Positions 1,654 through 31,495 of a stretch of DNA of 34,336 nt are shown here, piece after piece. This DNA comes from Anaerolineae bacterium (GTDB lineage: Bacteria > Chloroflexota > Anaerolineae > B4-G1). Location of the stretch: positions 1 to 34,336 of the forward strand of contig DATKWP010000118.1 of the NCBI GenBank assembly GCA_035529535.1, in the 5' to 3' direction. Numbering within the stretch: the first letter of the stretch is position 1; each line of letters begins with the position of its first letter. A program made the position numbers and the translations under genes. The notes beneath the pieces were generated by a model that did no database searches, had not been told where the DNA came from, and was given only the letters and a program-made list of their open reading frames with translations.

Positions 1654-1687
1654 AGATTGGAGATTGGAGATTGGAGATTGGAGATTG
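1653..1687. repeat. Five perfect tandem copies of GAGATTG (family I)
   Basis: The block starts on the last base of the ctp1 stop codon (TAG 1651-1653) and ends 3 nt before ATG 1691 of ctp2. Each unit junction reads GGAG. Confidence 0.95.
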
Positions 1688-1690
1688 GGG

Positions 1691-13259: not shown

Positions 13260-13264
13260 GGCGA

Positions 13265-13915
13265 CTATCCTCCCAGCAGCCCTTTGACGGCTTCCACCGC
13301 GCGGGTGGCGTTTTCGGCGTAGCCGTCGGCGCCGATCTCCGCGGCCCACTCGGGGCTGGTGGGCACGCCGCCGATGAGCACCTTTACCCGCTCCCGCAAG
13401 CCGGCCTCCTCGAGCGCGTGGATGACGGCTTCCTGGTTGAGCATCGTCGTGGTGAGCAGCGCCGAGAGCCCCACCACGTCGGCGTTCGCCTGGCGCACGG
13501 CGTCCACGAAGCGCTGCGGCGACACGTCCACGCCCAGATCGTGCACCTCGAAGCCGTTGGCCGCCAGCATGGTGGCGACCAGCGTCTTGCCGATCTCGTG
13601 GATGTCTCCCTGCACGGTGCCGATGACGATCCTGCCCAGCACCTGGCGCTCCTGTTTGCGCTTGACCAGTTCGGGCTCCAGTGCGGCGATGGCCGCCTTC
13701 ATGGCCTCGCCGCTCATCATCAGGTCGGGGATGAACAGGTCTCCGCGGGCAAAGCCTTCGCCGACCACGTCCATGCCTGGCTTGAAGCCCTGCTCGATGG
13801 CGGCCAGTGGATCCACGCCCGCGCGCAAGGCCTCGTGGGCCAGTTCGCGCGCCTTGTCCGGCAGGCCGGCGATGACCGCGTCGGTCATTTCCTTGAACAA
13901 TCTCTCATCTGTCAC
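13265..13915 (-). CDS. Corrinoid (cobalamin)-binding protein, MtbC/MtgC-like
   Basis: GTG 13915 lies 7 nt after GAGGAGG. An N-terminal helical cap (B12-binding_2-like) is followed by a Rossmann B12 domain with the DxHxxG motif (GTVQGDIHEIGKTLV), GLSALLTTTM and LIGG. Confidence 0.9.
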   Translation of the reverse strand: MTDERLFKEMTDAVIAGLPDKARELAHEALRAGVDPLAAIEQGFKPGMDVVGEGFARGDLFIPDLMMSGEAMKAAIAALEPELVKRKQERQVLGRIVIGTVQGDIHEIGKTLVATMLAANGFEVHDLGVDVSPQRFVDAVRQANADVVGLSALLTTTMLNQEAVIHALEEAGLRERVKVLIGGVPTSPEWAAEIGADGYAENATRAVEAVKGLLGG

Positions 13916-14873
13916 CTAGTATCCTCCTCGGTTCGTTTTGAACCTCCCGCAGGTTCACAACCTGCGGGAGGTTAAGAATCTCGAGGGGCTCGCCCCTGGC
14001 CGGGTCACGCACCAGCGAGAGCGCCCCCTGTGTACACCTGGAGACACACACGCCGCAGCCCATGCAGGCGGCGGCGTCCACGATGGCGGCGCCGTCTTTC
14101 ACGGAGAGCGCACCGAACTGGCAGAAACCGGTGCAAGTCGCACAGCCCACGCACGCGCCAGTGTCCACGCGGCTGACGTAGCCGGAGGAGGCCAGCATGG
14201 GGGTGCCGTGCCGGTGAGCCTGCATCGCTCCGCAGCAACAGGCGCAGCAGTTGCAGATGGCATAGAAGCGGCCCAACATGGCATCCTTGAAAAACGCGTG
14301 GTGGACGTGGCCGCGCTCGTGCTCGGCCTGCAGAATCTCCACCGCCTCGGCCTGCGTGGTCCAGCGCGACCGGCGCGGGTGGTGTTCGGCGATGAAACTG
14401 GCGAACGGCTCGCCGACGATCAGGCAGACGTCGAGCGGCAGGCAGGGCTCGGGACGCGCGGCCCGGCAGGGGCACTCGAGCGCCACGATGTGATCGGGAG
14501 AGCGCAGGACGATGTCGCGGGCGCGGGCGTAAGGAATCACCTGTTCCAGGTTGGACAGGTTGATCTCTTCGTTGACCGTGACCAGTTGCGTGGCGGCGGC
14601 CAGCGGCACGACCTTGCCGTGGTAGGTGTCGGCGAAGGTCACGCGGCCGGCGTCACCGGCCGGCCTGGGCGGGGACAGCCGGGCCAACCCGCGCACCAGC
14701 AGCCCAAAGAGGCGGGCCAACCGGTGTTCTCCGGTCCCAATGCCAATGTACAGGTAGGGCCAGCGGGCATACACGTAGCCGTGGAGCCAGTCGAAGAGCG
14801 AAAAGCCCGGGGTGCGCCGGGCTTCCCGCGCAAATGCCACCGTCGAAGGCTTGAGCCACTTTTTCCAAGCCAT
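13905..14873 (-). CDS. Cys-rich iron-sulfur protein with a C-terminal 2x[4Fe-4S] ferredoxin domain (family not recognised)
   Basis: Track ORF trimmed to ATG 14873, with a GAGGAG SD. Two ferredoxin motifs are present: CVGCATCTGFC and CMGCGVCVSRC. Upstream Cys clusters are ECPCRAARPEPCLPLDVC and ICNCCACCCG. The 3' end overlaps the corrinoid gene start by 11 nt. Confidence 0.75.
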   Translation of the reverse strand: MAWKKWLKPSTVAFAREARRTPGFSLFDWLHGYVYARWPYLYIGIGTGEHRLARLFGLLVRGLARLSPPRPAGDAGRVTFADTYHGKVVPLAAATQLVTVNEEINLSNLEQVIPYARARDIVLRSPDHIVALECPCRAARPEPCLPLDVCLIVGEPFASFIAEHHPRRSRWTTQAEAVEILQAEHERGHVHHAFFKDAMLGRFYAICNCCACCCGAMQAHRHGTPMLASSGYVSRVDTGACVGCATCTGFCQFGALSVKDGAAIVDAAACMGCGVCVSRCTQGALSLVRDPARGEPLEILNLPQVVNLREVQNEPRRILGDR

Positions 14874-14880
14874 GTTCTCC

Positions 14881-15960
14881 TCACCCCGCGAAGCCGCAAT
14901 GGCTACGCAACACTGCGGACAACTCGTGCAACAGCCCCAGCACCCGCTCGGCCAGCGGCTCGGTGAGCACGCCGCCAGCGCCACAACTGGGGGTCAGCAG
15001 CGCCCGCCGGAGCAGCAGGTCCCGCTCGAACCCCTTGCGCACCAACCGCTCGAGCCCCTCTTCCAAGCGCCCGAGCAGCGAAGCCACGCTCTCGATCGCC
15101 GCGGCCTCCCGGCTGAGCGTGGGGACGATGCCCCACCCCAGGCTCCCGCCCCGCTCCAGGAAGGCACGCAGTTCGGCGGGATAGAGCGTGATGGCCTGCA
15201 GGTGGTCGTAGGCGTCAAAGTCCAGGACGTCCAGGTCAGCCTCCATCAGCAACGACCAGTCGGTGTTGGCTTCGCAGTGCACGCCCGCGAGTGCGCCGTG
15301 GGCGTGGATCGCCGCGGCCACCTCTTTCAGGTCGCCGACGACGTCCTCCCGGCTGACCGTGATGAAAGTCTGCGACCCAAAGCCCAGCAATGCCGGCTCG
15401 TCGAGAAAGATCATCACGGGTGCACCGAACGTCCCCAGCCGGGCGATCTGCCACACCGCCTTCAAGGCCACCGTCTTGACGATCACGTCGCGCAGTTGGT
15501 CGTCGTAGTACGAGCAGCGACGGTCCTGGTCGGGCAGGTTGGTGCCCAGCGTGAAGGGGCCGGTGACCTGCCCCTTGAGCATCACCGGTGGGGCCGGCTG
15601 TTCCGGCAGCCGGGCGACGAACTCGGCAAAGCCCGCCGCGTACTGCAGGGAGAGGCCGAAAGTGTCGAGCGCAGCGAGATCCCCACCCTCGCTCGCGGCC
15701 AGGTAGCGGGTATAAAAGTCGGTCAGTTGCTCGGTGAAAGCGGAGGCTCCGGTATCGAAATAGACCCTGTCGCCCTCCTCTACCAGCCCCGGCAGCCGCT
15801 CGGTGAACTGCACCATCATGTTCTCGTGGAAGACGCGCCGGGGGAACTGCACCCAGGTGGGGATCTCGGGGACGCTCTCGAACATGAGGGCGGTGCCGCG
15901 CGCCACGTCGGTGTGGGGCAGGCTCCCAATCGCCGTAGCCAGGCAGCATGGTTCGAACAT
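14881..15960 (-). CDS. MetE-like (cobalamin-independent methionine synthase C-terminal fold, 'core MetE'-type) methyltransferase
   Basis: GGAGGA SD before ATG 15960. The N-terminal ATAIGSLPHTD resembles the TTIGSFPQT motif of the Meth_synt_2 family. Candidate zinc ligands are VHCEAN and LTPSCGAG. The protein is 359 aa, a single-barrel size. A UroD/MtaA-type fold cannot be fully excluded by eye. Confidence 0.65.
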   Translation of the reverse strand: MFEPCCLATAIGSLPHTDVARGTALMFESVPEIPTWVQFPRRVFHENMMVQFTERLPGLVEEGDRVYFDTGASAFTEQLTDFYTRYLAASEGGDLAALDTFGLSLQYAAGFAEFVARLPEQPAPPVMLKGQVTGPFTLGTNLPDQDRRCSYYDDQLRDVIVKTVALKAVWQIARLGTFGAPVMIFLDEPALLGFGSQTFITVSREDVVGDLKEVAAAIHAHGALAGVHCEANTDWSLLMEADLDVLDFDAYDHLQAITLYPAELRAFLERGGSLGWGIVPTLSREAAAIESVASLLGRLEEGLERLVRKGFERDLLLRRALLTPSCGAGGVLTEPLAERVLGLLHELSAVLRSHCGFAG

Positions 15961-18804: not shown

Positions 18805-19212
18805 ATGGACGAGCGTTTCGAGGAAGTGGAGCATACGTCCGACATCGCGATCCGGGTCTGGGGGCGCGACCTGGCCCAGTTGTTCGCCAACGCGGCCTAC
18901 GGTATGGCCTGCCAACTGGCCGACGTCGCGACGGTGGAGCGGACCGTCGAGCACGAGATCCAATTGGAGGACTGGGACGCCGAAACGCTGCTGGTCTCCT
19001 GGCTGGACGAGTTCCTCTATGCGAACGAGCGGGATGGCCTCGTGTTCACCGATTTCGACATGCTCGAGGTGTCCCCGACCCGGTTGCGCGCGGTCGTCCG
19101 AGGCGGGCCAGCGCCGGTCCGCTGGCACTCGATCAAGGCGGTCACGTTTAACGACTTGAGGATCGTGCGCACCGCAGAAGGATACGAGACCACCATCGTG
19201 TTCGACGTGTGA
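18805..19212 (+). CDS. Archease (RtcB activator/chaperone)
   Basis: [30 protein letters not shown]...[11 protein letters not shown] matches archease over its full 135 aa. It sits immediately upstream of rtcB, and its stop codon overlaps the rtcB leader. Confidence 0.9.
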
Positions 19213-19223
19213 AGGAGACAGGA

Positions 19224-20675
19224 ATGGTGCAGAAAAGTGATTTCAAGCGGGTGGACGAGTACATCTGGGAACTGCCGAAGGAAACGCGGGACGACATGCG
19301 CGTGCCGGCACGGTTGTTTGGGGATGAAGAACTGTTCGAGGCGGCCTTTCGTGACCGCACGGTCGAGCAGTTGATGAACACCGCCACGTTGCCGGGCATC
19401 GTCAAGCACGCCCTGGCCATGCCAGACTTTCACCAGGGCTACGGCCTGCCCATCGGCGGCGTAGCGGCGACGCGGGCGGACACGGGCGTGATCTCCCCCG
19501 GCGGGGTGGGATACGACATCAACTGTGGCGTGCGGCTCTTGGGCACCCACCTGGAACGGGAAGCGGTAGCACCGTACGTGCGGGACCTCACTGCGGCTCT
19601 CTACCGGGAATGTCCCAGCGGCGTGGGCAAGAACGGCCGCGTGCGCGCCTCCGAGCGGGAACTCGACGAACTGGTGGTTCAGGGCGCGCGGTGGGCGCTG
19701 AAGCGGGGGCTGGCGCGCCAGGAAGACCTGGCCCACACCGAGGAGCAGGGCCTCCTGCCCGGCGCCGATCCCAGCCACGTGAGTGCCCGGGCTAAAGACC
19801 GGGGCCGGCCACAGGTCGGCTCGCTCGGCGCCGGCAACCACTTCCTGGAGATAGACGTGGTCGAGGAGGTCTACGATCCGCAAGTGGCCCAGGTCTTCGG
19901 GCTGTGGGAAGAGCAGGTGGTGGTACAGATCCACTGCGGCTCGCGCGCCTATGGCCACCAGGTCTGTGACGATTACGTCAGGGATTTGCAGTCGGCCGTG
20001 CTCAAGTACAACCTGAGCCTGCCCGATCGGGAACTCGTCTGCGCGCCCGTGGACTCCCCCGAAGGCCGCGCCTACTACAGCGCCATGGCCTGCGCCGTGA
20101 ACTATGCTTTCGTCAACCGGCAGGTCCTGGCTATGGGTGTGCGCGAGGCGTTCGAGCAGGTGCTCGCCGGCAAGGTGAAGAATTTCGACCTGTTCCAGGT
20201 CTACGACGTGGCCCACAACATCGCCAAGTTCGAACAACACGAGGTAGACGGGCGGAAGACGAGGTTGTGCGTGCACCGCAAGGGAGCCACCCGTTCGGCC
20301 GGGCCGGGCTACGAGGGCTTGCCCGCCGACTACCGCGACGTAGGCCAGCCGGTGCTGGTGCCCGGTTCGATGGGCACCGCCTCCTACGTGCTGGTGGGCA
20401 CCCAGGCGGCCATGGCGTTATCTTTCGGCTCCGCCTGCCACGGGGCCGGGCGTGTGATGAGCCGCCACCAGGCGCTCAAGCAGGTCCAGGGGAGCGAGTT
20501 GAGACAGGAACTGGAACAGCAGGGCATCGTCGTGCGCGCCGGGAGCAACAAGGGGTTGGCCGAAGAGGCGCCGATTGCCTACAAGGACGTCAGCCGGGTG
20601 GTCGAAGTGGTACACGGGGCGGGGCTGGCCCGCAAGGTGGCCCGCCTGCGGCCGCTGGCAGTCATCAAAGGATAG
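19224..20675 (+). CDS. rtcB: RNA-splicing ligase RtcB (3'-phosphate/5'-hydroxyl RNA ligase)
   Basis: ATG 19224 follows the GAAGGAGA SD (the track start, GTG 19209, lies inside the archease stop region). RtcB signatures present: [67 protein letters not shown]. Confidence 0.95.
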
Positions 20676-20693: not shown

Positions 20694-23504
20694 ATGTCAC
20701 ACGATAGCCAAGCCGCCCGCCGCGAACGCATCCTACTCCTCATCGCCGCCGGTTTCATCCTCACTGGCATCCTGACCCTACGCATTGCGGAACGCGGAAC
20801 GCGGAATGCGGACTACGCCGGCGGGTACGCCGGGTTACGGATTACGGATTACGCATTCGCTTTCTGTTCATTCGCCGCCACGTTCGCCCTCGCCCACGTC
20901 TTGCTGAGCCGTTACCTGCCCGAGCACGACCCGTTCCTGCTGCCGGTGGCGGCCCTGTTGACCGGCTGGGGCCTCCTGCTCATCGGGCGGCTGGCCGCCA
21001 ACTTCCTCGTGCGGCAGACGCTCTGGCTGTGGATCTCTACCGTGGCGCTGTTGGCCACCGTCCGGCAGGGCCGCGACCTGCGCTGGCTGCGGCGCTTTCG
21101 CTACACCTGGCTGTTCGGAGGGTTGGCGCTCCTGGCGGCCACGCTCGTCCTCGGCGTCAACCCCTCCGGCTATGGCCCGCGCCTGTGGCTGGGCGCCGGA
21201 GGCGTCTACTTCCAACCCTCGGAACTGCTGAAACTCCTGATGGTCGTCTACCTGGCCTCTTACCTGGCCGAGAAGGGAGAACTGCTCACCTCGGAGGGCC
21301 GGCGGGTAGGACGCTGGCACCTGCCCCCCCTGGCCTACGCCGGCCCCTTACTGGCAATGTTCGGCCTGGCGGTGGTGCTGCTGGTCTGGCAACAGGACCT
21401 GGGCGCGGCGATGCTGTTTCTCTTCACCTTCCTGGCCATGCTCTACCTGGCGACCGGCCAGTGGGGATACGTCGCCGCCGGCCTGGCCCTCTTCCTCGTC
21501 GCCGGGCTGGCCGGCTACCGGCTGTCCGACCGCATCGCGCTGCGCGTGGACGGCTGGCTGAACCCGTGGCCCGAGGCCTCCGGCCGCGCTTTCCAGATCG
21601 TGCAGTCGCTGCTGGCCTTTGGCGCCGGGGCGGTCTTTGGACAGGGCCTGGGCCTGGGCAGCCCGACCTACATCCCGGCCGTCCACACCGACTTTATCTT
21701 CGCCGCGATCGGCGAAGAATTCGGCCTGGCCGGCGTTCTGGCCGTCGTCGCCCTGTACGCGGCGTTGATGCTGTGCGGCTTCCGCGTCGCCGCCCGCGCG
21801 ACGCGGCCGTTCGAGCGCTTCCTGGCCGCCGGACTGGCCGCCGGGTGGGCCATCCAGGCCTGGGTCATCATGGCCGGCAACGCCAAACTGGCCCCGATTG
21901 CTGGCGTCACCCTGCCCTTCGTCTCCTACGGCGGCAGTTCCCTGCTGACCTCGTTCATCGCGCTGGGCCTCCTCCTCCGCATCTCCAGCACAAGGGTGGT
22001 AAACTGGGAAACTGGTAGATTGGGAACTGGTAAATTGGGAACTGGTAAATTGGGAGATGGTCGCCAATCCACCAATCTACCAATTACCAATCTACCGGCT
22101 ACCAGTCTACCAATCACCAATCTACCAACTACCAGTCTACCAATCACCAATCTACCAACACTGGCCCTCGTGCTATCGCTGGCCCTGGCCCTGCTGGCTG
22201 CCGTGTGCGGCTACTGGGCCATCATGCGCGCCGACGACCTGCGCGCGCGCGACGACAATCCGCGCCGCGTGCTCTACGAGCAGCGGATCGTGCGCGGACG
22301 CATCCTGGACCGGGAGGGGACCGTACTGGCCAGCGTGGAGGTCGGGGACGACGGCACGATCACGCGCCGTTACCCGGTTCCGGAGGCCGCGCCGGTCCTG
22401 GGTTACGCCAGCCTGCGCTATGGCACCGGCGGGATCGAGGCCGCCTTCGACCGTGAATTGCGCGGCGAGGCCGGCCGCAACGACTGGCAAATCGCGTGGG
22501 ACGAACTGCTCCACCGACCCCCGCACGGCCGCGACGTGCAGTTGGCGCTCGACGCGGGGCTGCAGGTCCAGGCCCAACAGGGCCTGGACGGCCAGCGCGG
22601 GGCCCTGGTCTTGCTGGACGCTGCCACCGGCGAGGTTCTGGCCATGGCCTCCAGTCCCACCTACGACCCGCAACACCTGGACGAGGAGTGGGAAGCGCTG
22701 CGCGAGGACCCGGCCGCGCCGCTGGTCAACCGCGCCACCCAGGGCCGCTATCAACCCGGGGCCGCCTTGCAGACGGCCATCGTGGCCGAGGCGCTGAGCG
22801 AGGGACTGGCTACTCTCTCGATACCTGCGGCAGACGCGACGGCACGCCTCACGATCAACGGCTTCGAGTTAGGCTGTGGGGCGGTCCCCTCGCCGCCCTA
22901 CACCCTGGCCACCGCCTACGCGGCGGCCTGCCCGGCCCCTTTCGCCGACCTGGGCGCCCAGTTGGGGGCGGCGGCCCTGGAAAAGATGGTGGAACGGTGG
23001 GCGCTCACCACCCCACCCCCGCTAGAGATGCCGGCCGAGGCAGCCGATTGGAGCGCGGAAACGCTTTCAGGCACGGCGACCCTGGCGGTCGAGGCCATCG
23101 GCCAGGGCATGCTGACCATGTCGCCACTGCAGGCCGCGTTGATGGCCGGCACGCTCGCCAACGAAGGAGAAATGCCCATCCCACGGCTCGTGTTGCGCGT
23201 GTGGGATGCAGAAAACGGCTGGTTGGAACGGGCTGAGGCCGGGGAGCCTCGCCAGGTCCTCACACCCGGCATCGTCTGGGCGCTGCTGGCGACCTGGCGG
23301 CGCTACGACGGGGAAAAGGTCGCTGCGCACTGGGGAGCCGCGGCGGCCGGTGCAGGGCAGCCGCCACACGCCTGGTTCATCGGCGTGGCACCGGCGACGG
23401 GCCAGCCGCGCTACGCCATCGCCGTGCTGGTCGAACACGCTGCCGACCCCGAGAGCGCGGCGCGCATCGGCGCGGCGCTCTTGCAGGCAGCGACGGCCCA
23501 ATAA
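20694..23504 (+). CDS. Fusion protein: RodA-type SEDS peptidoglycan polymerase plus a class-B PBP-like domain with degenerate transpeptidase motifs
   Basis: Residues 1-~435 are SEDS: RERILLLIAAGFIL, DPFLLPVAALLTGWGLLLIGRL, FQPSELLKLLMVVYLASYL, VHTDFIFAAIGEEFGLAG, LPFVSYGGSSLLT. A repeat-encoded linker follows, then a TM helix (LALVLSLALALLAAVCGYWAI). The PBP2/PbpA-like region contains RGRILDREG, LLDAATGEVLAMASSPTYDP, LVNRATQGRYQPGAALQ and HAWFIGVAP. The ORF is a single uninterrupted 936-codon frame. Confidence 0.85.
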   Translation: MSHDSQAARRERILLLIAAGFILTGILTLRIAERGTRNADYAGGYAGLRITDYAFAFCSFAATFALAHVLLSRYLPEHDPFLLPVAALLTGWGLLLIGRLAANFLVRQTLWLWISTVALLATVRQGRDLRWLRRFRYTWLFGGLALLAATLVLGVNPSGYGPRLWLGAGGVYFQPSELLKLLMVVYLASYLAEKGELLTSEGRRVGRWHLPPLAYAGPLLAMFGLAVVLLVWQQDLGAAMLFLFTFLAMLYLATGQWGYVAAGLALFLVAGLAGYRLSDRIALRVDGWLNPWPEASGRAFQIVQSLLAFGAGAVFGQGLGLGSPTYIPAVHTDFIFAAIGEEFGLAGVLAVVALYAALMLCGFRVAARATRPFERFLAAGLAAGWAIQAWVIMAGNAKLAPIAGVTLPFVSYGGSSLLTSFIALGLLLRISSTRVVNWETGRLGTGKLGTGKLGDGRQSTNLPITNLPATSLPITNLPTTSLPITNLPTLALVLSLALALLAAVCGYWAIMRADDLRARDDNPRRVLYEQRIVRGRILDREGTVLASVEVGDDGTITRRYPVPEAAPVLGYASLRYGTGGIEAAFDRELRGEAGRNDWQIAWDELLHRPPHGRDVQLALDAGLQVQAQQGLDGQRGALVLLDAATGEVLAMASSPTYDPQHLDEEWEALREDPAAPLVNRATQGRYQPGAALQTAIVAEALSEGLATLSIPAADATARLTINGFELGCGAVPSPPYTLATAYAAACPAPFADLGAQLGAAALEKMVERWALTTPPPLEMPAEAADWSAETLSGTATLAVEAIGQGMLTMSPLQAALMAGTLANEGEMPIPRLVLRVWDAENGWLERAEAGEPRQVLTPGIVWALLATWRRYDGEKVAAHWGAAAAGAGQPPHAWFIGVAPATGQPRYAIAVLVEHAADPESAARIGAALLQAATAQ
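20781..20860. repeat. About eleven heptamer units inside the SEDS coding region (GCGGAAC x2, GCGGAAT, GCGGACT ... TTACGGA x2, TTACGCA)
   Basis: Period-7 reading. The GCGGAAY units are the reverse complement of family II (6281-6322). The block encodes ...AERGTRNADYAGGYAGLRITDYA... between predicted TM1 and TM2. Confidence 0.8.
22004..22160. repeat. Two opposed tandem-repeat arrays (15-nt period) encoding the SEDS-PBP linker
   Basis: First array, 22004-22060: (GGAACTGGTAAATTG)n, encoding GTGKL repeats. Second array, 22064-22160: (ACCAATCTACCAAYY)n, encoding TNLPx repeats. GGTAGATTGG (22014-22023) is the exact reverse complement of CCAATCTACC, which occurs at 22072, 22087, 22117 and 22147. The units are related to family I. 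Confidence 0.9.
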
Positions 23505-23649: not shown

Positions 23650-25656
23650 TCAGCGGGATGAACGCCCCTCCGTTCGCCGTGCCTCCGAGGCCAGTTCCGC
23701 GTACTCGTGCTTCACCAGTTCCTTCTCCTGCACCTGGAATAATTCCAACAGTTCCCCAATCAGGTCCGCCTTCCGCTCGGCATCCTGTTTCGACCAGGTG
23801 CGGCTCTTGATCTCCAGGAACAGCCCCGGAAACTCCGGCTCCATCAGCCGGTCCAGGTTGACGGCAAAGTCCGTCCCGCCGTAGCGAATGTAATAGCGCC
23901 GCCGTTCCTTGCGCACTTCGACTTCGGCGGCCGGTTGAAAGTACTCCCGGTAAAAGCGCAGGCTGCGCGTGGCCGGCGCATCGAAGCGGGAGCGCGAGAG
24001 CAGCACCGACTTGGCATATTCCCGCTCCTTCGTCTCGCCGGTCAGCGTCAGCCGGTAGAACACGTCCTGCACCTGCCCGTCCTCACCCAGCACCTCATCC
24101 TCCCGGTAGCGGATGCGGCTGCGGTAGGGATCGTCGAACAGAAAGTAGGTGTCGTATTGGTTGCGCAGCGATTGCCGGAGGATCGTGATCTCCGGCCGGT
24201 CGAGCAGGACTTCCAGTGCCACCTGGCCCGCCAGCAGTACCTTCACCTGCACTTCGAAGGTCTTCTCCTGGGCCACCTGGCCGACCGCCAACAGCTTGCT
24301 CAGCACACTCTCCTCGCGCTGGATCAGGAACACGTCAATCTTCCGTGCGACGTCAGCCGCCTCGGCTATCAACCCCTGTTCGTCGAGGGTGAGCAACGCC
24401 CGCTCACGCATCAACCACCGCCCCTGGCACATCGTATCCCTGACGTCGCTGCCCTTGGTGGCATAGACCAGTTGGGCGTACAGCGCGAGCGGATCGCGCG
24501 CGAACTTGGGGGTGTTGTGGACGCCGCGCAGGTCCACCACGACGAGGTCGGCCCGCTTGCCTGGCTCCAGCGAGCCGATGAACTCTCCCACGTGCAGCGC
24601 CCGCGCCCCGCCAATGGTGGCCATCGCCAGCGCCTGTCGCGCCGGCAGCACCGTCGGATCCGAGTTCACCCCCTTGGCCAGGAGCGCAGCCAGCCGCATC
24701 TCCTCCCACATGTCCAGGTCGTTGTTGCTGGCCGGGCCGTCGGTGCCGATGCCCACGTTGAGGCCCAGTTCCAGCATGTAGACGACCGGCGCAAAGCCGC
24801 TGGCCAGTTTGAGATTGCTGCTGGGGTTATGCGACACGCCAACCCCGTGGTGCAGCAGCGTGTGCATCTCTCCTTCGTCCAGGTGGACGCAATGCGCGGC
24901 GGTGACCTTGGCCTCAAAGACCCCCTGTTTCTTGACCCAGGGAACCATGGGCATCCCGTACTCGGCCCGGTGCTCCTCCACCTCCTGCGCCGTCTCGGCC
25001 ATGTGGATGTGGAGCGGCACGTCGAACTCGAGCGCCATGCGGGTGCACGCCTGCAAGAGTTCCGGGGTCGTCGTGTAGGGCGCATGGGGCCCCACCGCCG
25101 GCATGATCAGCGGGTGTCCCTTCCAACGCTGGATAAAGTCGCGGGCGCGCTCCAGTCCCTCGTCGTAACTGAGCGCATCCGGCGTGGGGAAGCGCAGCAC
25201 CGTCTCCGCACACACCGCACGCAGCCCGGCCTGGGCGGTGGCGTCGGCCACCGCCTCCTCGTAATAGTACATGTCGGCGAAACAGGTCGTGCCGGAACGG
25301 ATCATCTCGGCGCAGGCCAACTGTGTGCCGAGCCAACAGAACGCCGGCCGCACAAACTCCTGCTCGACCGGCATCATGTAGCCCATCAGCCAGACGTCCA
25401 GCCGCAGGTCGTCTGCCACTCCTCGGAGCAGCGTCATTGGGGCGTGGGTATGGGCATTGATCAGGCCCGGAGTCACCGCACACTCGCTGCAGTCCACGAC
25501 CTCGGCAGCCGTATACGCCGCCGCGATCTGATCCACCGGCCCCACGGCCTCGATGAGCCCTCTGCGGATCGCCACCGCCCCAGGGGTGAACAGGTCGAAC
25601 CCCTCGTTCATCGTGACGACTTTGCCGCCGGTCAGGATTGCGTCAACTTCGATCAT
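23650..25656 (-). CDS. mtaD: MtaD-like amidohydrolase (5-methylthioadenosine/S-adenosylhomocysteine deaminase family) fused to a C-terminal CYTH-like domain
   Basis: Track ORF 23650..26004 trimmed to ATG 25656, with a GGAGGAGGG SD. Deaminase motifs present: GLINAHTHAPMTLLRG, PLHIHMAETAQEV, GIGTDGPASNNDLDM, GKRADLVV. The last ~205 aa show a CYTH/CyaB-like pattern: FEVQVKV, QYDTYF, RIRYRED, YRLTLTG, VRKERRRY, FAVNLD, LFLEIKS. Confidence 0.85.
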   Translation of the reverse strand: MIEVDAILTGGKVVTMNEGFDLFTPGAVAIRRGLIEAVGPVDQIAAAYTAAEVVDCSECAVTPGLINAHTHAPMTLLRGVADDLRLDVWLMGYMMPVEQEFVRPAFCWLGTQLACAEMIRSGTTCFADMYYYEEAVADATAQAGLRAVCAETVLRFPTPDALSYDEGLERARDFIQRWKGHPLIMPAVGPHAPYTTTPELLQACTRMALEFDVPLHIHMAETAQEVEEHRAEYGMPMVPWVKKQGVFEAKVTAAHCVHLDEGEMHTLLHHGVGVSHNPSSNLKLASGFAPVVYMLELGLNVGIGTDGPASNNDLDMWEEMRLAALLAKGVNSDPTVLPARQALAMATIGGARALHVGEFIGSLEPGKRADLVVVDLRGVHNTPKFARDPLALYAQLVYATKGSDVRDTMCQGRWLMRERALLTLDEQGLIAEAADVARKIDVFLIQREESVLSKLLAVGQVAQEKTFEVQVKVLLAGQVALEVLLDRPEITILRQSLRNQYDTYFLFDDPYRSRIRYREDEVLGEDGQVQDVFYRLTLTGETKEREYAKSVLLSRSRFDAPATRSLRFYREYFQPAAEVEVRKERRRYYIRYGGTDFAVNLDRLMEPEFPGLFLEIKSRTWSKQDAERKADLIGELLELFQVQEKELVKHEYAELASEARRTEGRSSR

Positions 25657-25702
25657 GGCCCACCCTCCTCCATCCCCACCCCGTGGTTGTTCGAGTTGGC
25701 TG

Positions 25703-25731
25703 ATTATAGCCTGAATACCACCCCAACGCAA
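25703..25731 (-). promoter_or_regulatory. Candidate sigma70-type promoter for the mtaD-like gene
   Basis: Minus strand: TTGCGT (25731-25726), 17-nt spacer, TATAAT (25708-25703). It lies about 45 nt upstream of ATG 25656. Confidence 0.5.
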
Positions 25732-25751
25732 TCCACTGTAAGTTCCGGAAC

Positions 25752-25780
25752 TTTCGGGAAGGTGGCGTTTATGATATAAT
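25752..25780 (+). promoter_or_regulatory. Candidate promoter for pdp (extended -10)
   Basis: TGaTATAAT (TATAAT = 25775-25780) with a weak -35 (TTTCGG, 25752-25757). It lies about 33 nt upstream of ATG 25813, which has a GAGGTG SD. Confidence 0.4.
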
Positions 25781-25812
25781 AAGCCGGTAATATCACAGGA
25801 CTGAGGTGAAGC

Positions 25813-27120
25813 ATGCACGCAACAGACGTGATCGCCAGGAAGCGCGACGGCGGCGAACTTTCGCGGGAAGAGATCGAATTCTTCATCCAGGGAGTGACGG
25901 GGGGCGACGTCCCCGACTACCAGGCAGCGGCCTGGCTGATGGCCGTGTACTTGCGCGGCATGACCGACCGGGAGACCACCGACCTGACGCTGGCCATGGC
26001 CCACTCAGGCGACGTGCTCGATCTGAAGGACGTGGTCCCGTTCGCCGTGGACAAGCACTCCACGGGCGGCGTCGGCGACAAGGTCAGCCTGGTGGTAGCG
26101 CCCCTGGTGGCGGCCTGCGACATACCGATCGCCAAGATGACCGGGCGGGGCCTGGGCTTTAGCGGCGGAACGCTGGACAAACTAGAGTCCATCCCTGGCT
26201 ATCGGACCGACCTGACGGAAGCCGAGTTCAAAGCGCAACTGCGAGAGATCGGCATCGTGTTGACCGGGCAGAGCGCTGACCTGGCCCCCGCCGACCGCAA
26301 ATTGTACGCGCTGCGCGACGTGACGGCCACCGTCGAATCCGTGCCCCTCATCGTCAGTTCCATCATGAGCAAGAAACTCGCTGCCGGCACCGATGCCATC
26401 GTGCTGGACGTCAAGATGGGCAACGGCGCGTTCATGAAGACGCTGGAGCAAGCGGAGACGCTGGCCGAGGCCTTGGTCCGCTTGGGTAAGCACGCCGGAC
26501 GCCACGTCGTGGCCCTGATCTCCGACATGAACCAGCCGCTGGGCTGGGCGGTGGGAAACGCGCTGGAAGTACGGGAAGCGATCAACACCCTGCACGAAGG
26601 GGGCCCCGCCGACTTCCGCGAGCACTGCATGATCGTGGCGGCCGAGTTACTGATGCTGGGCGGCAAGGCCGCCGATGGCAGTGCTGCACTCACGCTGGCG
26701 CTGGACACCCTGACCTCTGGAGCCGCCTGGCACAAGTTCAGCCAGTTGGTGGAGGCCCAGGGAGGTGACGTGCGCTACATCGAGGACCCGGACCGCTTGC
26801 CGAAGGCCCGGCTGATCGAACCGGTGCCAGCGCCGCGCAGCGGTTACCTCTCGGGTGTGAATGCCGCCGAGATCGGGAGCGCCGTCGTGGAGCTGGGTGG
26901 CGGGCGGATGAAGAAGGGGGACTCGGTTGACCCCAGCGTGGGGGTCATACTACACTACAAGGTGGGCGACCTGGTACAGAGGAACACGCCGCTATTCACC
27001 ATCCACGCCAGCGATGAGACGAAACTGGCCGCGGCCCGCACGCGCTTGCTGGCGGCGCACACCTTCAGCGATCGCCCCGTGCCACGGTTGCCGCTGTTCT
27101 ACCGGCGCATCGCCGAATAG
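25813..27120 (+). CDS. pdp: Pyrimidine-nucleoside (thymidine) phosphorylase
   Basis: DVIARKRDGGELSREEIEFFIQG, AAWLMAVYLRGMT, VDKHSTGGVGDK and GRGLGFSGGTLDKLESIPGY are family signatures. The match is full-length at 435 aa. Confidence 0.93.
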   Translation: MHATDVIARKRDGGELSREEIEFFIQGVTGGDVPDYQAAAWLMAVYLRGMTDRETTDLTLAMAHSGDVLDLKDVVPFAVDKHSTGGVGDKVSLVVAPLVAACDIPIAKMTGRGLGFSGGTLDKLESIPGYRTDLTEAEFKAQLREIGIVLTGQSADLAPADRKLYALRDVTATVESVPLIVSSIMSKKLAAGTDAIVLDVKMGNGAFMKTLEQAETLAEALVRLGKHAGRHVVALISDMNQPLGWAVGNALEVREAINTLHEGGPADFREHCMIVAAELLMLGGKAADGSAALTLALDTLTSGAAWHKFSQLVEAQGGDVRYIEDPDRLPKARLIEPVPAPRSGYLSGVNAAEIGSAVVELGGGRMKKGDSVDPSVGVILHYKVGDLVQRNTPLFTIHASDETKLAAARTRLLAAHTFSDRPVPRLPLFYRRIAE

Positions 27121-27169: not shown

Positions 27170-28327
27170 TTATCGCAGTTGTTCGGGCAGGCCGGAGGGC
27201 CTTGCCACACTGTCCGCGCCAATCCGATACCAGAATAACGGCGCGCTGCCCCAATTCCGCCCACCATCGAACTCGATCTGCCCCAGGAGGCCGGTTCGCT
27301 TCACGGTCGCCAGCGCCGCCGCTACTCCCTCTCGCGTCGGCGTTCCGTGGGCGACGACGTCCTGCTCCAACGCCTCCAATAATACCCACGTCGCCTCGTA
27401 GGCCGGCAACGCCAGCGGCCCGGGCGGCGGCACGTCGGGGGAGAGGGCACGGTAGGCGGCTATGAATTCGGCGCTCCCTGCTACGTCGGCCGGCAAGGGC
27501 CACGGCGTGACGAAGAGCGCCCCTGTGGCCACCTCGCCCGCCACGGCAGCAAAGTCGGCCGCGGCCAGGTCCGGCCCGCCCAGGAAGGTCCCCTCCCAGC
27601 CGGTCCCGCGCAAGGCCGCCACCACCTCTCCCGCCCTCACCGGATCGGCGTCACAGACCACCGCGTTTGCTCCCGACGCGGAAACCGCCTGAAGCCAGGC
27701 CGGGTCGCTCGAAGAGGCGGCGGCCAGGAGTGGCGTCTGGCGCTGAGAAGCGGCTGCGGCCAAGGCCGCCCCCAGCGGGCCACCGTCGGTCACCAGGGCG
27801 AGCCTGACCGGCCCCGAGTGCGCCTCGACCCGCTCCAGCAGCGCTTCGGCCAGCGCCTCAACGGGGGGACCCAGGCGGTACACGGCGGCCTCGCCCTGGC
27901 CGAGGTCAGGAGCCAGCGCTGCCGGGGCGACGAGCGGGATGCCCGCCTGGGCGTAGATGCTCGCTGCCGCCGCGGTCGCCCCCTCGCGGAAGTGGCCGAT
28001 GGCGGCGACGACGTCCGGGTCCACCGCCAGTTTGCGGGCCTGCTGGGTGGCCTGGTCCAGATCGGCCCCGTCGTCGTAGGCCACCAGTTCGACGTTATAG
28101 CCCCCCACCCCGCCCGCACCATTGGCCTCCCGCAACGCCAGCCTGGTAGCGTAGATGACGTCGTAGCCCACGTAGCGGTAGCGCCCCTCGAACGGAGCGA
28201 CCAGCCCGATCTTCACCGTGGGGCGGACGGTGCCGGGGAAGCGGCAGGCAGCCAAAAGAAACACGCAACACACAATACAGAACACGTGTTGCGTATTGCG
28301 TGTACCGTGACTACTGCGCCCCGCCAC
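27170..28327 (-). CDS. Periplasmic-binding-protein type 1 (LivK/Peripla_BP_6-like) ABC substrate-binding lipoprotein
   Basis: VKIGLVAPFEGRYRYVGYDVIYATRLALREANGAGGVGGYNVELVAYDDGADLDQATQQARKL and AAIGHF fit the branched-chain amino acid/amide SBP family. A lipobox-like LLAAC follows the hydrophobic VFCIVCCVF. The start is uncertain: ATG 28327 overlaps the mltG 3' end by 17 nt. No permease or ATPase genes are adjacent. Confidence 0.75.
   Translation of the reverse strand: MAGRSSHGTRNTQHVFCIVCCVFLLAACRFPGTVRPTVKIGLVAPFEGRYRYVGYDVIYATRLALREANGAGGVGGYNVELVAYDDGADLDQATQQARKLAVDPDVVAAIGHFREGATAAAASIYAQAGIPLVAPAALAPDLGQGEAAVYRLGPPVEALAEALLERVEAHSGPVRLALVTDGGPLGAALAAAASQRQTPLLAAASSSDPAWLQAVSASGANAVVCDADPVRAGEVVAALRGTGWEGTFLGGPDLAAADFAAVAGEVATGALFVTPWPLPADVAGSAEFIAAYRALSPDVPPPGPLALPAYEATWVLLEALEQDVVAHGTPTREGVAAALATVKRTGLLGQIEFDGGRNWGSAPLFWYRIGADSVARPSGLPEQLR
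28259..28314. repeat. Eight heptamer units forming an imperfect ~50-bp palindrome centred on AACACGTGTT (28281-28290)
   Basis: The units are AAACACG CAACACA CAATACA GAACACG | TGTTGCG TATTGCG TGTACCG TGACTAC. They are related to family III. The block lies inside the predicted signal-peptide coding region of the SBP gene and reaches the mltG stop codon. Confidence 0.8.
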
Positions 28328-29456
28328 ACATCTGATAGTTGCTGAGATGTTCTTCCTCCGTCACGGCAAAGAGGTGGCTGCCGTCGTTCTTCTGGCAGTC
28401 AGCGAGGAAGAAGTAATAGTCCGTAGTGGCCGGATAGGCAGTGGCCTGGATCGAGGCCAGGCCGGGGCTACAGATCGGCCCCGGCGGCAGGCCCAGGTGG
28501 CGGTAGGTATTGTAGGGAGAATCCAGGTCGGTGGCCTCGGGCGTAAACTGGGGCCACCAATTGTCGGGGGTACCCAGCCCGTACTGCACGGTGGGACAGG
28601 CCCCCAGGTACCAGCCCGAGTCCAGGCGATTGTAGTAGACCCCCGCGATGAGCGGGCGCTCCTGCTCCAGCACTGCCTCCCGTTCAACGATGGAGGCCAG
28701 CGTAATCAGTTGGTGGGCGTTCAAGCCACGGTTCGCCGCGGCGGCCCGCATCTCCGGCGTCACACGAGCGGCGAAGGTCTCTAACATGCGGCTCACCAGG
28801 TCCATGGCCGTAGCCTGTTCGGGCAGCCGGTAAGTCTCGGGGAACAGGAACCCTTCCAGGGTCGCCCCCTGGGGTAGATCGGACAGGAAATCGAAGCCCA
28901 GGCCCGCGTCCCGCCACCCGCCGGTCACCAGGGCCAGGAACTCTTCCCGGGGAACGTTCGTCTGCGTCGCCACCACGGCCGCCACCTGCTCCAGCCGCAA
29001 CCCCTCCTGAATCGTGACGGTCTGTTCGTGGCGCTGCCCTTCCTGCAACGCTTGCGCAATCTGGGGGATCGTCATCGTCTGGCGCAAAGTGAACTCGCCA
29101 GCCTCGATACCGGCGTCCAGCCCATGATACTGCACGTAGCGGCGGAACAACTCGGCGTCGGAGACCAGCCCCGCCTGCTTCAGCCGGTCGGCGACCTGGA
29201 CGACCGTCTCTCCTGGCTCGACCACGAAGGGGACCGGCGTGTCGTCGCTCCCGGCCGGCTGCTCCAGCTCGCCCGCCCTGGCGTCCAGGTAGACGCCGAT
29301 GAGCGACTTGTCCGGCGCGGACAGCGCACACAGGCTGAGCGAGAACCCCCCACCGCCGGGTGTAGAGCGGTTGAGAAACCGCCCGGCGATGACACCCGCG
29401 GCGACGATGACGAACAACGTCAGGACGAAAACGATCACCCTACCCACGTTCTTCAA
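28311..29456 (-). CDS. mltG: Endolytic murein transglycosylase MltG (YceG-like)
   Basis: TTG 29456 lies 6 nt after GGAGG. An N-terminal TM (RVIVFVLTLFVIVAAGVIAG) is followed by YceG signatures: LASIVEREA, VYYNRL, PTVQY, SPYNTYRHLGLPPGPICSPG, YYFFLA. Confidence 0.9.
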   Translation of the reverse strand: MKNVGRVIVFVLTLFVIVAAGVIAGRFLNRSTPGGGGFSLSLCALSAPDKSLIGVYLDARAGELEQPAGSDDTPVPFVVEPGETVVQVADRLKQAGLVSDAELFRRYVQYHGLDAGIEAGEFTLRQTMTIPQIAQALQEGQRHEQTVTIQEGLRLEQVAAVVATQTNVPREEFLALVTGGWRDAGLGFDFLSDLPQGATLEGFLFPETYRLPEQATAMDLVSRMLETFAARVTPEMRAAAANRGLNAHQLITLASIVEREAVLEQERPLIAGVYYNRLDSGWYLGACPTVQYGLGTPDNWWPQFTPEATDLDSPYNTYRHLGLPPGPICSPGLASIQATAYPATTDYYFFLADCQKNDGSHLFAVTEEEHLSNYQMCGGAQ

Positions 29457-29489
29457 ATTCTGCCTCCATGCTACGATGGACGCCCCGCT

Positions 29490-29939
29490 TCAGCGGGGGT
29501 CTCCCGACTGCATTTCGCACCGGGAGCTGTCCAGGTAGCTCTGCAAGATCACAGCGGCCGCGACCGCGTCCACTTCGCCCTTCGCGCGTACTCGTTGCCG
29601 CTCTTTCCTCTTCCGGCCCTCGCGCAGGATCTCCTCTGCCTCCACCGTTGTGAAACGCTCGTCCCACGAGACCACGCGCACGGGCAGGCAAGCCGCCAGC
29701 GCCCGCGCGTAGCGGGCGATGCGCCGGGCCTGCGGCCCCTCCGTGCCATCCTCGCGCAGCGGCCGGCCCACCACCACCAGTTCGACGCTGTGCTGGGCAA
29801 CGATGGCCGCCAGCGCGGCAAAATCCTCCTCGCGCGAGCCTCGCACCAGCGTCTGCACGGGGCGGGCCACGCTGCCCATAGGATCACTCACGGCAACGCC
29901 CACGCGCCGTTCTCCCACGTCTAACCCTAGCACGCGCAC
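29490..29939 (-). CDS. ruvX: Putative pre-16S rRNA nuclease / Holliday junction resolvase-like protein RuvX (YqgF)
   Basis: VLGLDVGERRVGVAVSD, VVGRPLREDGTEGPQARR, WDERFTTVEAE and VDAVAAAVILQSYLD are YqgF signatures. The start is set at GTG 29939. TTG 29945 and GTG 29933 are alternatives. Confidence 0.88.
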   Translation of the reverse strand: MRVLGLDVGERRVGVAVSDPMGSVARPVQTLVRGSREEDFAALAAIVAQHSVELVVVGRPLREDGTEGPQARRIARYARALAACLPVRVVSWDERFTTVEAEEILREGRKRKERQRVRAKGEVDAVAAAVILQSYLDSSRCEMQSGDPR

Positions 29940-29947
29940 GCCCAACC

Positions 29948-31471
29948 TCAGCTCTGCGGGACCACTTGCACGCTGATGCGCAGCGGGAGCAACGGCATGC
30001 GCCCGATCCATTCCGGCCAGACGGTGATGCGAGGAGGCTCGGCCAATGGGAGTTCTTGCAGCAAGCGCTCGCGCGTATCGGTCACCGGTTGTCCTCGAAT
30101 GAGCGCCACCGCCGCTTTGGTATCCAGGGCGGCAGCCGCGTAGCCGCGAGCCGTGACGAAGAGGGTAAACCGGCCCGGGCCAATGTCCTCTTCGGCCACT
30201 TCGCCCAATTCGAAACGGGCGTTCACCAACCCATAATCTGGCGGCAAGCGGCGCGATAGAACGACGTAGGCCACCGCCTCCGCATTGTCCACGTCCACCG
30301 CCAGCCCGCTCACCAGCAGCCCCATGTTCAGCCCGACCTTGTCAGCCTGCTCCGTGACAAAGTGGGTGTACCCCTCCTTGGACACGGATTCGACGGTCAG
30401 CGACTGGCGCAGGATGATCTCCGTCGGCTCCAGCAGATCGCTGTTGCCCATCTCGACGTAGGCCTGGTCGAGCAATTGCCGGATCAACCGCTTGCGTACC
30501 CGCTCGTAATCGGCCTGGGTGACGACACGCACATCTTGGGGCTCCGCCCCGTGGGTTGGCTCCACGTTGATCACCCGGATGGCGTACGCGGCCACTCCTT
30601 CCATCTGGTTGATCTGGAAGGCGCCCACGTTGCCGACCCCATCCTCCAGCGCCTCGGCCCCCACGGTCGCCTGCCCTCCGGCCGGCACCGCCACGTCGGC
30701 CATGGTGCGGAAGCGGATGGGATAACTGGTGGAGGAAGTGCGCAGCACCGTGCCGGCGGGCACGACATAGTCCTGCGTCAGCAGATTGGTGAGCAGGACC
30801 TCACCCACCGCGCGCCCGGCGGAAACGCTCATGGTACCGGTCGTTTCGACTTCCGAAAACCCTTCGATCTCGACGCCGATCCGCCGCGCCGGGATGACGC
30901 GGTCGGCGTGATTGACCGTCTCGACGTTCGAGTCCGCCGACACCGGCACGATGGTCACAAACTCCTGGCCGGCCGGCACCAGCGTCACCGCCCCACTCGG
31001 CACGATGACGTAAGCGCTGCCCACCAGGACCACGAGCGCCAATAGGAAAATGACGAGGCGGGTGCCCAGGCCAATCCAGTTCAACCAGCGGGCACGGGGA
31101 CGCACCGGGCGTGGCCGGAGGGCGACTCGCTCCTCCCACCAGTGAACAGGGGGTGGCCCGGCCCGCTGCGGCGGGCGAGCGTGCCACACCTCGGTCCCTA
31201 ACGCCTCCTCGACGCTGGGGAAGGCCGGGAAGCCACACCCGCGGGCCAGTTGCCGCCGCTCCGGGTCAGCCGAAACGATGGCGATCTCCAGCTGCCAGCC
31301 TTCGGCCTCCCGCCGCAGGACGTCGAAATCCAACTTGCGGGAGAGAAGGCGCAACTCCCAGGGAAGCACCAACGCCACCCGGCCCCGGTCCAGCCAACTG
31401 AGCCGCTGGCGGACCGAGGCGAGGTCGTCCTCAGATTGCAGTTCTACGACCGAACAGGTTCCAAGGCCCAC
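29948..31471 (-). CDS. Hypothetical single-pass membrane protein (family not recognised)
   Basis: The ORF is 507 codons with coding-type GC3 bias, between alaS and ruvX. It has an N-terminal ~100-aa soluble domain, an Arg/Pro-rich segment, one TM (LGTRLVIFLLALVVLVGSAYVIV) and a ~340-aa beta-rich C-terminal region. The GTG start at 31471 is uncertain. Confidence 0.6.
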   Translation of the reverse strand: MGLGTCSVVELQSEDDLASVRQRLSWLDRGRVALVLPWELRLLSRKLDFDVLRREAEGWQLEIAIVSADPERRQLARGCGFPAFPSVEEALGTEVWHARPPQRAGPPPVHWWEERVALRPRPVRPRARWLNWIGLGTRLVIFLLALVVLVGSAYVIVPSGAVTLVPAGQEFVTIVPVSADSNVETVNHADRVIPARRIGVEIEGFSEVETTGTMSVSAGRAVGEVLLTNLLTQDYVVPAGTVLRTSSTSYPIRFRTMADVAVPAGGQATVGAEALEDGVGNVGAFQINQMEGVAAYAIRVINVEPTHGAEPQDVRVVTQADYERVRKRLIRQLLDQAYVEMGNSDLLEPTEIILRQSLTVESVSKEGYTHFVTEQADKVGLNMGLLVSGLAVDVDNAEAVAYVVLSRRLPPDYGLVNARFELGEVAEEDIGPGRFTLFVTARGYAAAALDTKAAVALIRGQPVTDTRERLLQELPLAEPPRITVWPEWIGRMPLLPLRISVQVVPQS

Positions 31472-31495
31472 GGTCTGCGCCCCACCTGGAGGGGC

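Follow-up and report, generated by a model that had tools for sequence, protein, structure and literature searches.

The contig DATKWP010000118.1 of an Anaerolineae bacterium (Chloroflexota; assembly GCA_035529535.1), positions 1 to 34,336 of which make up the window analyzed here, contains a gene that encodes a SEDS-family (RodA/FtsW-type) glycosyltransferase and a penicillin-binding protein of class B (bPBP) in one polypeptide, and in which the bPBP half no longer carries its three transpeptidase motifs. Most bacteria rely on SEDS-bPBP pairs as their core wall synthases, and the pairs are major targets of antibiotics. To our knowledge, the role of a bPBP as transpeptidase versus allosteric activator has been addressed only through point mutants made in the laboratory. 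The analysis described here followed up a first-pass annotation, made from the letters of the window alone. It shows that the dead module, i.e., a PbpA-type bPBP lacking its motif residues, is conserved across a large clade of Anaerolineae, either fused to the SEDS protein or separate beside rodA.

Gene and Domain Architecture

The gene lies at 20694..23504 of the forward strand and appears in the ORF listing as a single open reading frame (ORF) without interruption, 936 amino acids (aa) in length, which begins with an ATG codon 18 nt downstream of the RtcB stop codon. The G+C content of its third codon positions (GC3) is 0.83, and its codon-position G+C matches that of neighboring genes in the window, which has an overall G+C content of ~67%. 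The first-pass annotation had read one frame of 936 codons in which a SEDS domain is followed by a linker, a transmembrane (TM) helix, and a PbpA-like region. This reading is borne out, as the ORF has no internal stop codon and the Pfam domains and a helix in the AlphaFold model agree with the proposed order. Pfam, NCBIfam, and GC3 data together define the architecture as SEDS domain, linker, TM helix, pedestal, and a dead transpeptidase (TP)-like domain.

The SEDS domain comprises aa 1-435 (20694..21998, forward strand, as for all features of the gene) and was assigned from Pfam family FTSW_RODA_SPOVE (PF01098) and structure alignments. The PF01098 match covers aa 102-433 (E 2.6e-74), with a score of 250.8 bits against a cut-off of 26.4 and profile positions 35-353 of 356 covered. 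A cytoplasmic linker containing in-frame tandem repeats follows at aa 436-490 (21999..22163). The PBP module has a single TM helix, aa 491-516 (22164..22241; LALVLSLALALLAAVCGYWAI...), which corresponds to helix 486-517 of the AlphaFold model and matches the N-terminal anchor of unfused PbpA genes. This helix leads into the pedestal or PBPA_dimer region at aa 517-635 (22242..22598), which contains a match to PBP_dimer_2 (PF21922, the PbpA N-terminal domain) at aa 534-615 (E 5.4e-12). The remainder of the protein, aa 636-936 (22599..23501), has the fold of Pfam family Transpeptidase (PF00905), which matches aa 636-928 over profile positions 1-296 of 299 (E 1e-26) and is corroborated by Foldseek.

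The SEDS Half

The SEDS half aligns over the full cores of Pseudomonas aeruginosa FtsW, Thermus thermophilus RodA, and Escherichia coli RodA. Its QPSELLK motif, containing the conserved SEDS Glu-Lys pair E177 and K180 (21222..21233), is aligned to QPSEIAK or QPLELAK of the solved FtsW and RodA structures, and its HTDF motif (H331-T332-D333-F334; 21684..21695), which includes the putative catalytic residue Asp333, falls on HTDF in the same structures, as does PFVSYGGSS on its counterparts. The E177/K180 pair, H331, D333, and F334 are invariant among 60 homologues, PFVSYGGSS likewise does not vary among homologues, and the Glu-Lys pair, HTDF, and PFVSYGGSS are kept in all of the distant fused, unfused, and eroded relatives that were compared. 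The SEDS domain is thus complete, as had been claimed, and with its catalytic residues intact it looks catalytically competent.

The earlier designation of this domain as RodA-type stands only in part. The NCBIfam FtsW model (TIGR02614) scores 269.3 bits against an equivalog cut-off of 337.5, and the RodA model (TIGR02210) scores 206.7 bits against 336.7; because both scores are below their cut-offs, the subtype is not assignable by score, and the FtsW score exceeds the RodA score. The gene order of unfused relatives, in which FhaA and FhaB genes precede the SEDS-PbpA pair, supports the original label and favors a RodA-PbpA type over an FtsW type.

Loss of the Transpeptidase Motifs

The motif columns of the PBP half were set by phmmer alignment to Mycobacterium tuberculosis PbpA (3lo7/3un7, E 1e-41). 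PGSTFK of that protein is aligned with PGAALQ, so that the former SxxK motif reads A690-A-L-Q693 (22761..22772); the corresponding sequence in 4ra7 is SSFK. SCN is aligned with ACP (A745-C746-P747; 22926..22934), within the segment AACPAPF in which the first reading had placed the SxN position, and KTGT is aligned with HWGA (H879-W-G-A882; 23328..23339), within HWGAAAAG. Immediately beyond the last of these columns the two proteins are again alike, with PPHAWYIAFAP of M. tuberculosis PbpA aligned to PPHAWFIGVAP. All three substitutions read from the letters alone are therefore seen at the aligned columns. As a positive control, an unfused PbpA from an Acidimicrobiales locus (L027) showed STFK, SCN, and KTGT in the same alignment.

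The motifs are not displaced to another part of the protein. A regular-expression scan of the whole 936-aa protein found no SxxK, [ST]xxK, Sx[NDC], or [KHR][TS]G, and the phmmer, MAFFT, and Foldseek alignments likewise exclude motifs hidden elsewhere in the domain, the outcome that would have undone the original proposal. The same scan found exactly two lysines in aa 491-936, K764 (LEKM) and K875 (GEKV), neither of them in an SxxK context, just as first described. The two cysteines of the SxN region, C728 and C746, are aligned to Cys at both positions in M. tuberculosis PbpA, and in the crystal structure of that protein the pair is presumably joined as a disulfide.

The fold itself is retained. 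The TP-like domain has pLDDT values mostly of 85-94 in the AlphaFold model, and Foldseek returned target-normalised TM-scores of 0.77-0.82 to PbpA-type structures (3lo7/3un7/4mnr/4jbf). Judged as a member of the PbpA subfamily of bPBPs, the PBP half has the TM anchor, the PBPA_dimer region, and the PF00905 fold and lacks SxxK, SxN, and KTG(T); because the three motif tests fail, it is homologous to the PbpA-type transpeptidases without being a functional member of the group. The original suggestion of a PBP moiety that is kept without its cross-linking residues agrees with these alignments, and both covalent β-lactam binding and D,D-transpeptidase activity are predicted to be absent from it.

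The Linker and the Reality of the Fusion

The junction between the two halves consists of a tandem repeat at nt 21997-22159, the units of which, 15 or 30 nt, are all multiples of 3 according to Tandem Repeats Finder. They encode LGTGK three times, followed by T[NS]LP[IAT] units, and the G+C content of the linker (0.45) is far from that of the ORF (0.69). Residues 436-481 are disordered in the AlphaFold model (pLDDT <50). The repeat copy number differs among homologues that are 93-99% identical, with every change in frame, and the linkers of other lineages are of low complexity and unrelated, e.g., RSPKSEV repeats. The linker in the window is among the longest, with a SYGGSS-to-DNPRR distance of 110 aa compared with a median of 78.

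The best 120 protein homologues, 59-99% identical and drawn from ENA, JGI, NCBI, and Logan assemblies, were surveyed for both the fusion and the substitutions. PF01098, PF21922, and PF00905 occur in one protein in 120/120, from independent assemblies, and every one of these proteins is without the SxxK Lys, the SxN Ser and Asn, and the KTG Lys and Thr. The first-pass annotation had asked for such a survey and for confirmation of the junction; the universal fusion and the in-frame variation in linker length establish a genuine single chain and rule out a junction artefact. The C-terminus of SEDS proteins and the N-terminus of bPBPs are both cytoplasmic, and a read-through fusion is therefore topologically neutral.

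Distribution of the Dead Module in Fused and Unfused Proteins

An exhaustive phmmer search with aa 491-936 against 1.84 billion cluster representatives (50%-identity clusters) yielded 857 clusters at E <= 1e-30, and motif counts were taken from the best 150 of the 857 representatives. The dead pattern was present in 133/150 of these nearest representatives, most of which are unfused proteins of ~450 aa with their own Met, a short tail, and a TM helix. The other 17/150 retain the Ser and Lys of SxxK, and two of them (P0143 and P0175) are fused proteins of ~900 aa with intact SxxK, SxN, and KTG. In a neighbor-joining tree of 141 near-full-length sequences (139 representatives plus the query and the L027 control), the dead proteins number 122, of which 95 are unfused, 20 are fused (query included), and seven are of intermediate length. 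The dead proteins cluster apart from the intact ones, while fused forms are scattered among the unfused. A separate search with an unfused dead member (P0246) gave 119 relatives, all of them without motifs 1 and 3. Recurrence of the same three-motif loss across these homologue sets is far beyond chance.

The hypothesis that fusion caused the motif loss was rejected, as most dead proteins are unfused and intact fused proteins exist. Beyond what was first noted, then, the motif loss is independent of the fusion and clade-wide. Since it belongs to a large, mostly unfused Anaerolineae clade, fusion is secondary and recurrent. The 119 relatives of the unfused query derive from metagenome-assembled genomes (MAGs) labeled Anaerolineae, Chloroflexota, or Phototrophicaceae, some with contigs of 0.4-1 Mb, and the 26 loci closest to the fused gene, from species-representative genomes, are from Anaerolineae or Anaerolineales MAGs, with one labeled just "bacterium." The nearest intact PbpA proteins are from Chloroflexota too, including some Anaerolineae-labeled MAGs and Dehalococcoidia, and their genes stand either beside a SEDS gene (L032) or alone (L033).

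Two unfused loci, L030 and L031, have the gene order FhaA-FhaB-(SDR)-PNP-SEDS-dead PbpA, with genes for FhaA-like and FhaB-like FHA-domain proteins and a PNP_UDP_1 gene located before rodA-pbpA (3585-6652 in L030 and 4557-6687 in L031). FhaA, FhaB, and PNP_UDP_1 genes were not found among the window ORFs scanned. In L030, rodA and the dead pbpA overlap by 11 nt (8001-8011), and in L031 only TGA-CCC-ATG, which keeps the frame, lies between them (7995-8003), so that one point mutation would fuse them. The overlap or near-contact of the two genes implies that they may be translationally coupled, and the unfused arrangement of rodA and dead pbpA is the putative ancestral state.

Selection and Divergence of the PBP Half

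Ratios of nonsynonymous to synonymous substitution rates (dN/dS), determined for the query against six distinct relatives with 56-98% per-domain identity, revealed that the PBP half is under purifying selection, strongest on the pedestal. The pedestal values of 0.14-0.22 are the lowest of the protein, followed by those of the SEDS domain (0.19-0.26), the TP-like domain (0.21-0.40), the TM helix (0.40-0.56), and the linker (0.5-1.2). Identity ratios were also compared between SEDS+PBP proteins, fused or concatenated, whose SEDS domains had diverged to a similar degree. Among dead-dead pairs (n=190) the TP/SEDS ratio was 0.64 and the pedestal/SEDS ratio 0.82, whereas intact-intact pairs (n=6) gave 1.00 and 0.89. 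The drop in the TP/SEDS ratio with a similar pedestal ratio indicates that constraint is relaxed on the TP domain specifically and is not abolished. Erosion has gone further in the Anaerolinea-type fusions of ~800 aa, which have an intact SEDS domain (E 4e-72) and a still recognizable pedestal, while only the first ~40 PF00905 positions match, the SxN region is deleted, and ~75 of ~295 aligned positions of the TP-like domain are lost.

The residues that replaced the motifs are themselves recurrent. Among the 133 dead proteins, the SxxK Lys column contains Gln in 81 and Glu in 20, the SxN Asn column contains Pro in 122, and the KTG Lys column contains His in 77 and Tyr in 15, while the nucleophile column is Ala or Gly in 68. 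The Cys within SxN (C746) is present in 128/133 and its partner (C728) in 129/133. Both are invariant among homologues of the fused protein, and the pair is more conserved in dead proteins than in intact relatives.

Neighboring Genes in the Window

The SEDS-PBP gene is immediately preceded on its own strand by genes assigned by Pfam to Archease (18805-19212) and RtcB (19209-20675). They are probably co-transcribed with it and unrelated in function. The order Archease-RtcB-SEDS-PBP recurs in loci L028 and L029 and is conserved down to relatives of 70% identity; in the unfused relative L030 the two genes, which encode an RNA ligase pair, are nearby but divergent. A scan for a promoter and a terminator 3' of the ORF found nothing. 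The convergent gene on the other side (23650-26004, reverse strand) encodes an amidohydrolase fused to a CYTH domain, a neighbor conserved in L028, L029, and L030; its actual start probably lies downstream of that of the longest ORF, as the proteins of relatives have ~670 aa.

Farther along the reverse strand, a cluster at 28311-34246 contains genes for AlaRS, a 506-aa ORF of unknown function, RuvX, and MltG/YceG. The 506-aa ORF (29948-31471) has no Pfam match, and its counterpart in L028 has a precomputed Baseplate_J match. MltG is a peptidoglycan strand-cleaving enzyme. Its presence in the window is consistent with a peptidoglycan wall, as a sign of glycan strand synthesis, and together with an mreB gene near the fused gene of L029 it fits a normal rod system that makes glycan strands. 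At the start of the window, two tandem genes for S41/PDZ (CtpA-like) C-terminal processing peptidases (355-1653 and 1586-3031, forward strand) are followed by smpB (3028-3498, forward strand). A segment at 11793-14984 (reverse strand) combines genes for an MttB-family methyltransferase (518 aa), a corrinoid-binding protein, and a 4Fe-4S protein, likely a module for methylated-amine or betaine demethylation. The MttB-family gene is of the non-pyrrolysine type because it has no in-frame stop.

A Model for the Function of the Fused Protein

We consider it probable, at roughly 70%, that the protein is a single-chain peptidoglycan synthase pair of the RodA-PbpA type, in which an active polymerase is joined to a pseudo-enzyme that serves as its activator or scaffold. 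According to this model, the N-terminal SEDS domain would be a working lipid II polymerase, and the disordered linker of variable length would tie its cytoplasmic C-terminus to the TM helix of a PbpA-type bPBP module. That module keeps its membrane anchor and pedestal, the parts of the PBP half that are conserved best, and the overall transpeptidase fold. Because acylation depends on residues that are all replaced here (Ser/Lys in SxxK, Ser/Asn in SxN, and Lys/Thr in KTG), the module would neither cross-link peptides nor bind β-lactams covalently.

Retention of the module would be explained by the dependence of SEDS proteins on the TM helix and pedestal of a bPBP partner for activation and assembly, with the TP-like domain persisting in a structural or docking capacity. 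The polymerase activity of FtsW in vitro requires a bPBP, and a catalytically inactive PBP2x variant was used in those assays (10.1101/358663); Bacillus subtilis PBP2b and Clostridioides difficile SpoVD(S311A) fulfil their function non-catalytically as long as a different bPBP makes the cross-links (PMC12713402). It is because of these precedents that the activator or scaffold role is inferred here. Cross-links would come from another enzyme, which may be a class A PBP, an L,D-transpeptidase, or a PbpA-type PBP that stands alone. One gene of that last kind, with its motifs intact and no SEDS gene beside it, was observed in L033 (10001-11482), on a 111-kb metagenomic contig, and proteins of this type are candidates for a "free" cross-linking partner. 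No intact PbpA relative of P0136 was found on the contigs of 0.4-1 Mb that bear dead PbpA genes, a weak negative result.

As to its history, the dead module would have arisen first, in an ancestor whose rodA and pbpA were still separate genes, and fusion would have followed by loss of the rodA stop codon, more than once. The broader proposal that the bPBP has been a pseudo-enzyme since before a large Anaerolineae subclade diversified, with cross-linking either assigned to unlinked enzymes or unusual in kind, is advanced more tentatively and falls a little short of an even chance.

Evidence against the Model and Alternative Explanations

Several observations weigh against the activator or scaffold model. 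The domain arrangement of the AlphaFold model is uncertain (pTM 0.54), so that contact between the pedestal and the SEDS domain is only assumed by homology. No second PBP was found within ~10 kb in the window and in loci L001-L029, using phmmer with an intact PbpA and six-frame ORFs of at least 150 aa. The comparison with intact lineages rests on six pairs only, and the nucleophile position is still Ser or Thr in 34/133 dead proteins. Finally, the conserved Gln, Pro, and His replacements hint at a retained pocket function for which a pure scaffold would have no need. This last point underlies an explanation that overlaps with the model and that we regard as rather unlikely in its own right, namely that the TP-like domain has a non-catalytic ligand-binding or docking function based on a remodelled pocket (Gln693, Pro747, His879, and Cys728-Cys746), which might serve to bind nascent glycan or stem peptides, to attract the actual transpeptidase, or to sense the state of the wall. 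Replacements that are not random (Gln in 81/133, Pro in 122/133, His in 77/133, and both Cys in ~129/133), purifying selection on the domain (dN/dS 0.2-0.4), and its confident fold are in keeping with such a role. The domain nevertheless evolves faster relative to SEDS than it does in intact lineages, the conserved Pro and Cys are equally explicable as structural, and the Anaerolinea-type proteins drop ~75 of ~295 positions, including the SxN region, an erosion indicating that any pocket function is dispensable in part of the clade.

A different question is whether the pair might be a divisome synthase of the FtsW-FtsI kind and not an elongation machine of the RodA-PbpA kind. The higher score of TIGR02614 than of TIGR02210 (269 vs 207 bits) and a search of the PDB, in which FtsW of 8bh1 reached 121 bits and RodA 103 bits, would favor the divisome. 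Both NCBIfam scores are nevertheless below their equivalog cut-offs, the PBP half is of the PbpA type (PBP_dimer_2, with M. tuberculosis PbpA as its best PDB match), the unfused relatives occur in an FhaA-FhaB-...-SEDS-PbpA locus and not in a dcw cluster, and mreB is 6 kb away in L029, all of which make a division role distinctly unlikely. Catalysis by unconventional residues, with Ser or Thr as nucleophile in some proteins or by His or Cys chemistry, is very improbable. It could draw on the 34/133 proteins with Ser or Thr and on the conservation of His879 and Cys746. The nucleophile is, however, Ala in the protein studied here and Ala or Gly in 68/133 dead proteins, no dead protein has the general-base Lys, SxN and KTG are likewise lost, and Cys746, the middle residue of SCN, also occurs in active PbpA and is presumably disulfide-bonded. 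Hardly credible, in turn, is the idea that the PBP half is a decaying relic or that two genes were joined into a single ORF by an assembly or frameshift error. The low-G+C tandem-repeat junction is of a kind that is error-prone for assemblies, and its repeat number differs between close relatives; yet 120/120 best homologues are fused, every length difference is in frame, dN/dS is well below 1 in all folded domains, the 936 codons contain no stop codon, and the topologies of SEDS and PBP proteins are compatible with a read-through fusion.

Implications

If the broader proposal of a bPBP that became a pseudo-enzyme before the subclade diversified is correct, the only indispensable natural job of such a bPBP would be to partner and activate a SEDS polymerase, and the elongation machine of which it is a part would be intrinsically blind to β-lactams. 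The conserved Gln/Pro/His pocket may then represent a new non-catalytic site for binding peptidoglycan or a partner. In hundreds of sequence clusters the anchor, pedestal, and fold of the bPBP persist under purifying selection although the catalytic residues are lost, and some lineages weld the bPBP to the polymerase. The dead modules would provide a natural system that separates SEDS activation from cross-linking, and a β-lactam-insensitive elongation machine is predicted for a widespread environmental and wastewater clade. The model also raises a testable question, the source of the cross-links in Anaerolineae peptidoglycan. At the level of annotation, the analysis corrects the labels [quoted passage not shown] "penicillin-binding protein 2," and "bifunctional" that these proteins now carry.

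Comparison with Known Systems

The closest known counterpart is the RodA-PbpA pair of M. tuberculosis (Rv0017c/Rv0016c; 3LO7, 3UN7), the PbpA of which is the best match of the PBP half (E 1e-41, TM-score 0.77-0.79). The two share the PBPA_dimer domain, the PPHAW motif, and both cysteines flanking SxN. M. tuberculosis PbpA is active, is acylated by β-lactams, and has STFK, SCN, and KTGT, whereas in the Anaerolineae protein the three motifs are gone and the genes are fused. In actinobacteria the operon has the order fhaA-fhaB-pstP-rodA-pbpA-pknA-pknB, and the FhaA-FhaB-...-rodA-pbpA order is also found in the unfused Anaerolineae relatives. Genes for a PP2C phosphatase or for PknA/B kinases were not seen beside the Anaerolineae locus. 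At the Acidimicrobiales locus L027, the SEDS and PbpA genes are adjacent and separate.

In RodA-PBP2 and FtsW-FtsI complexes, the TM helix and pedestal of the bPBP contact and activate the polymerase. The complexes of T. thermophilus (6PL5), E. coli (8TJ3), and P. aeruginosa (8BH1) have the core SEDS motifs in common with the Anaerolineae protein. They consist of two chains with an active bPBP and a larger canonical pedestal (PF03717), in contrast to its one chain, small PbpA-type pedestal, and dead TP domain.

A 2025 survey of natural SEDS-bPBP fusions, termed putative "bifunctional class B synthases," counted 117 InterPro proteins that include those of Senegalimassilia faecalis (931 aa, PBPA_dimer-containing) and Rhodococcus jostii (947 aa); it contains no catalytic motif analysis and no mention of Anaerolineae (PMC12516126). 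As described there, the catalogued fusions have the same order of SEDS glycosyltransferase, PBPA_dimer or pedestal, and transpeptidase, and the same length of ~900-950 aa, as the Anaerolineae protein. They are called bifunctional, while the Anaerolineae protein has a SEDS site and no TP site, leaving at most one predicted activity. It is thus homologous to the "bifunctional" fusions and, to judge from its motifs, not itself bifunctional. In a full-text literature search neither a naturally dead bPBP nor a SEDS-PBP fusion from Anaerolineae was found to have been described, and the 2025 survey was the sole work on fusions to emerge. The nearest functional parallels are the engineered dead bPBPs, i.e., PBP2b, SpoVD S311A, and the inactive PBP2x variant, which likewise have a partner role that is non-catalytic and essential (PMC12713402; 10.1101/358663). 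Those proteins are single laboratory point mutants of enzymes that are otherwise active, whereas in the Anaerolineae three motifs have been removed naturally and across a large clade.

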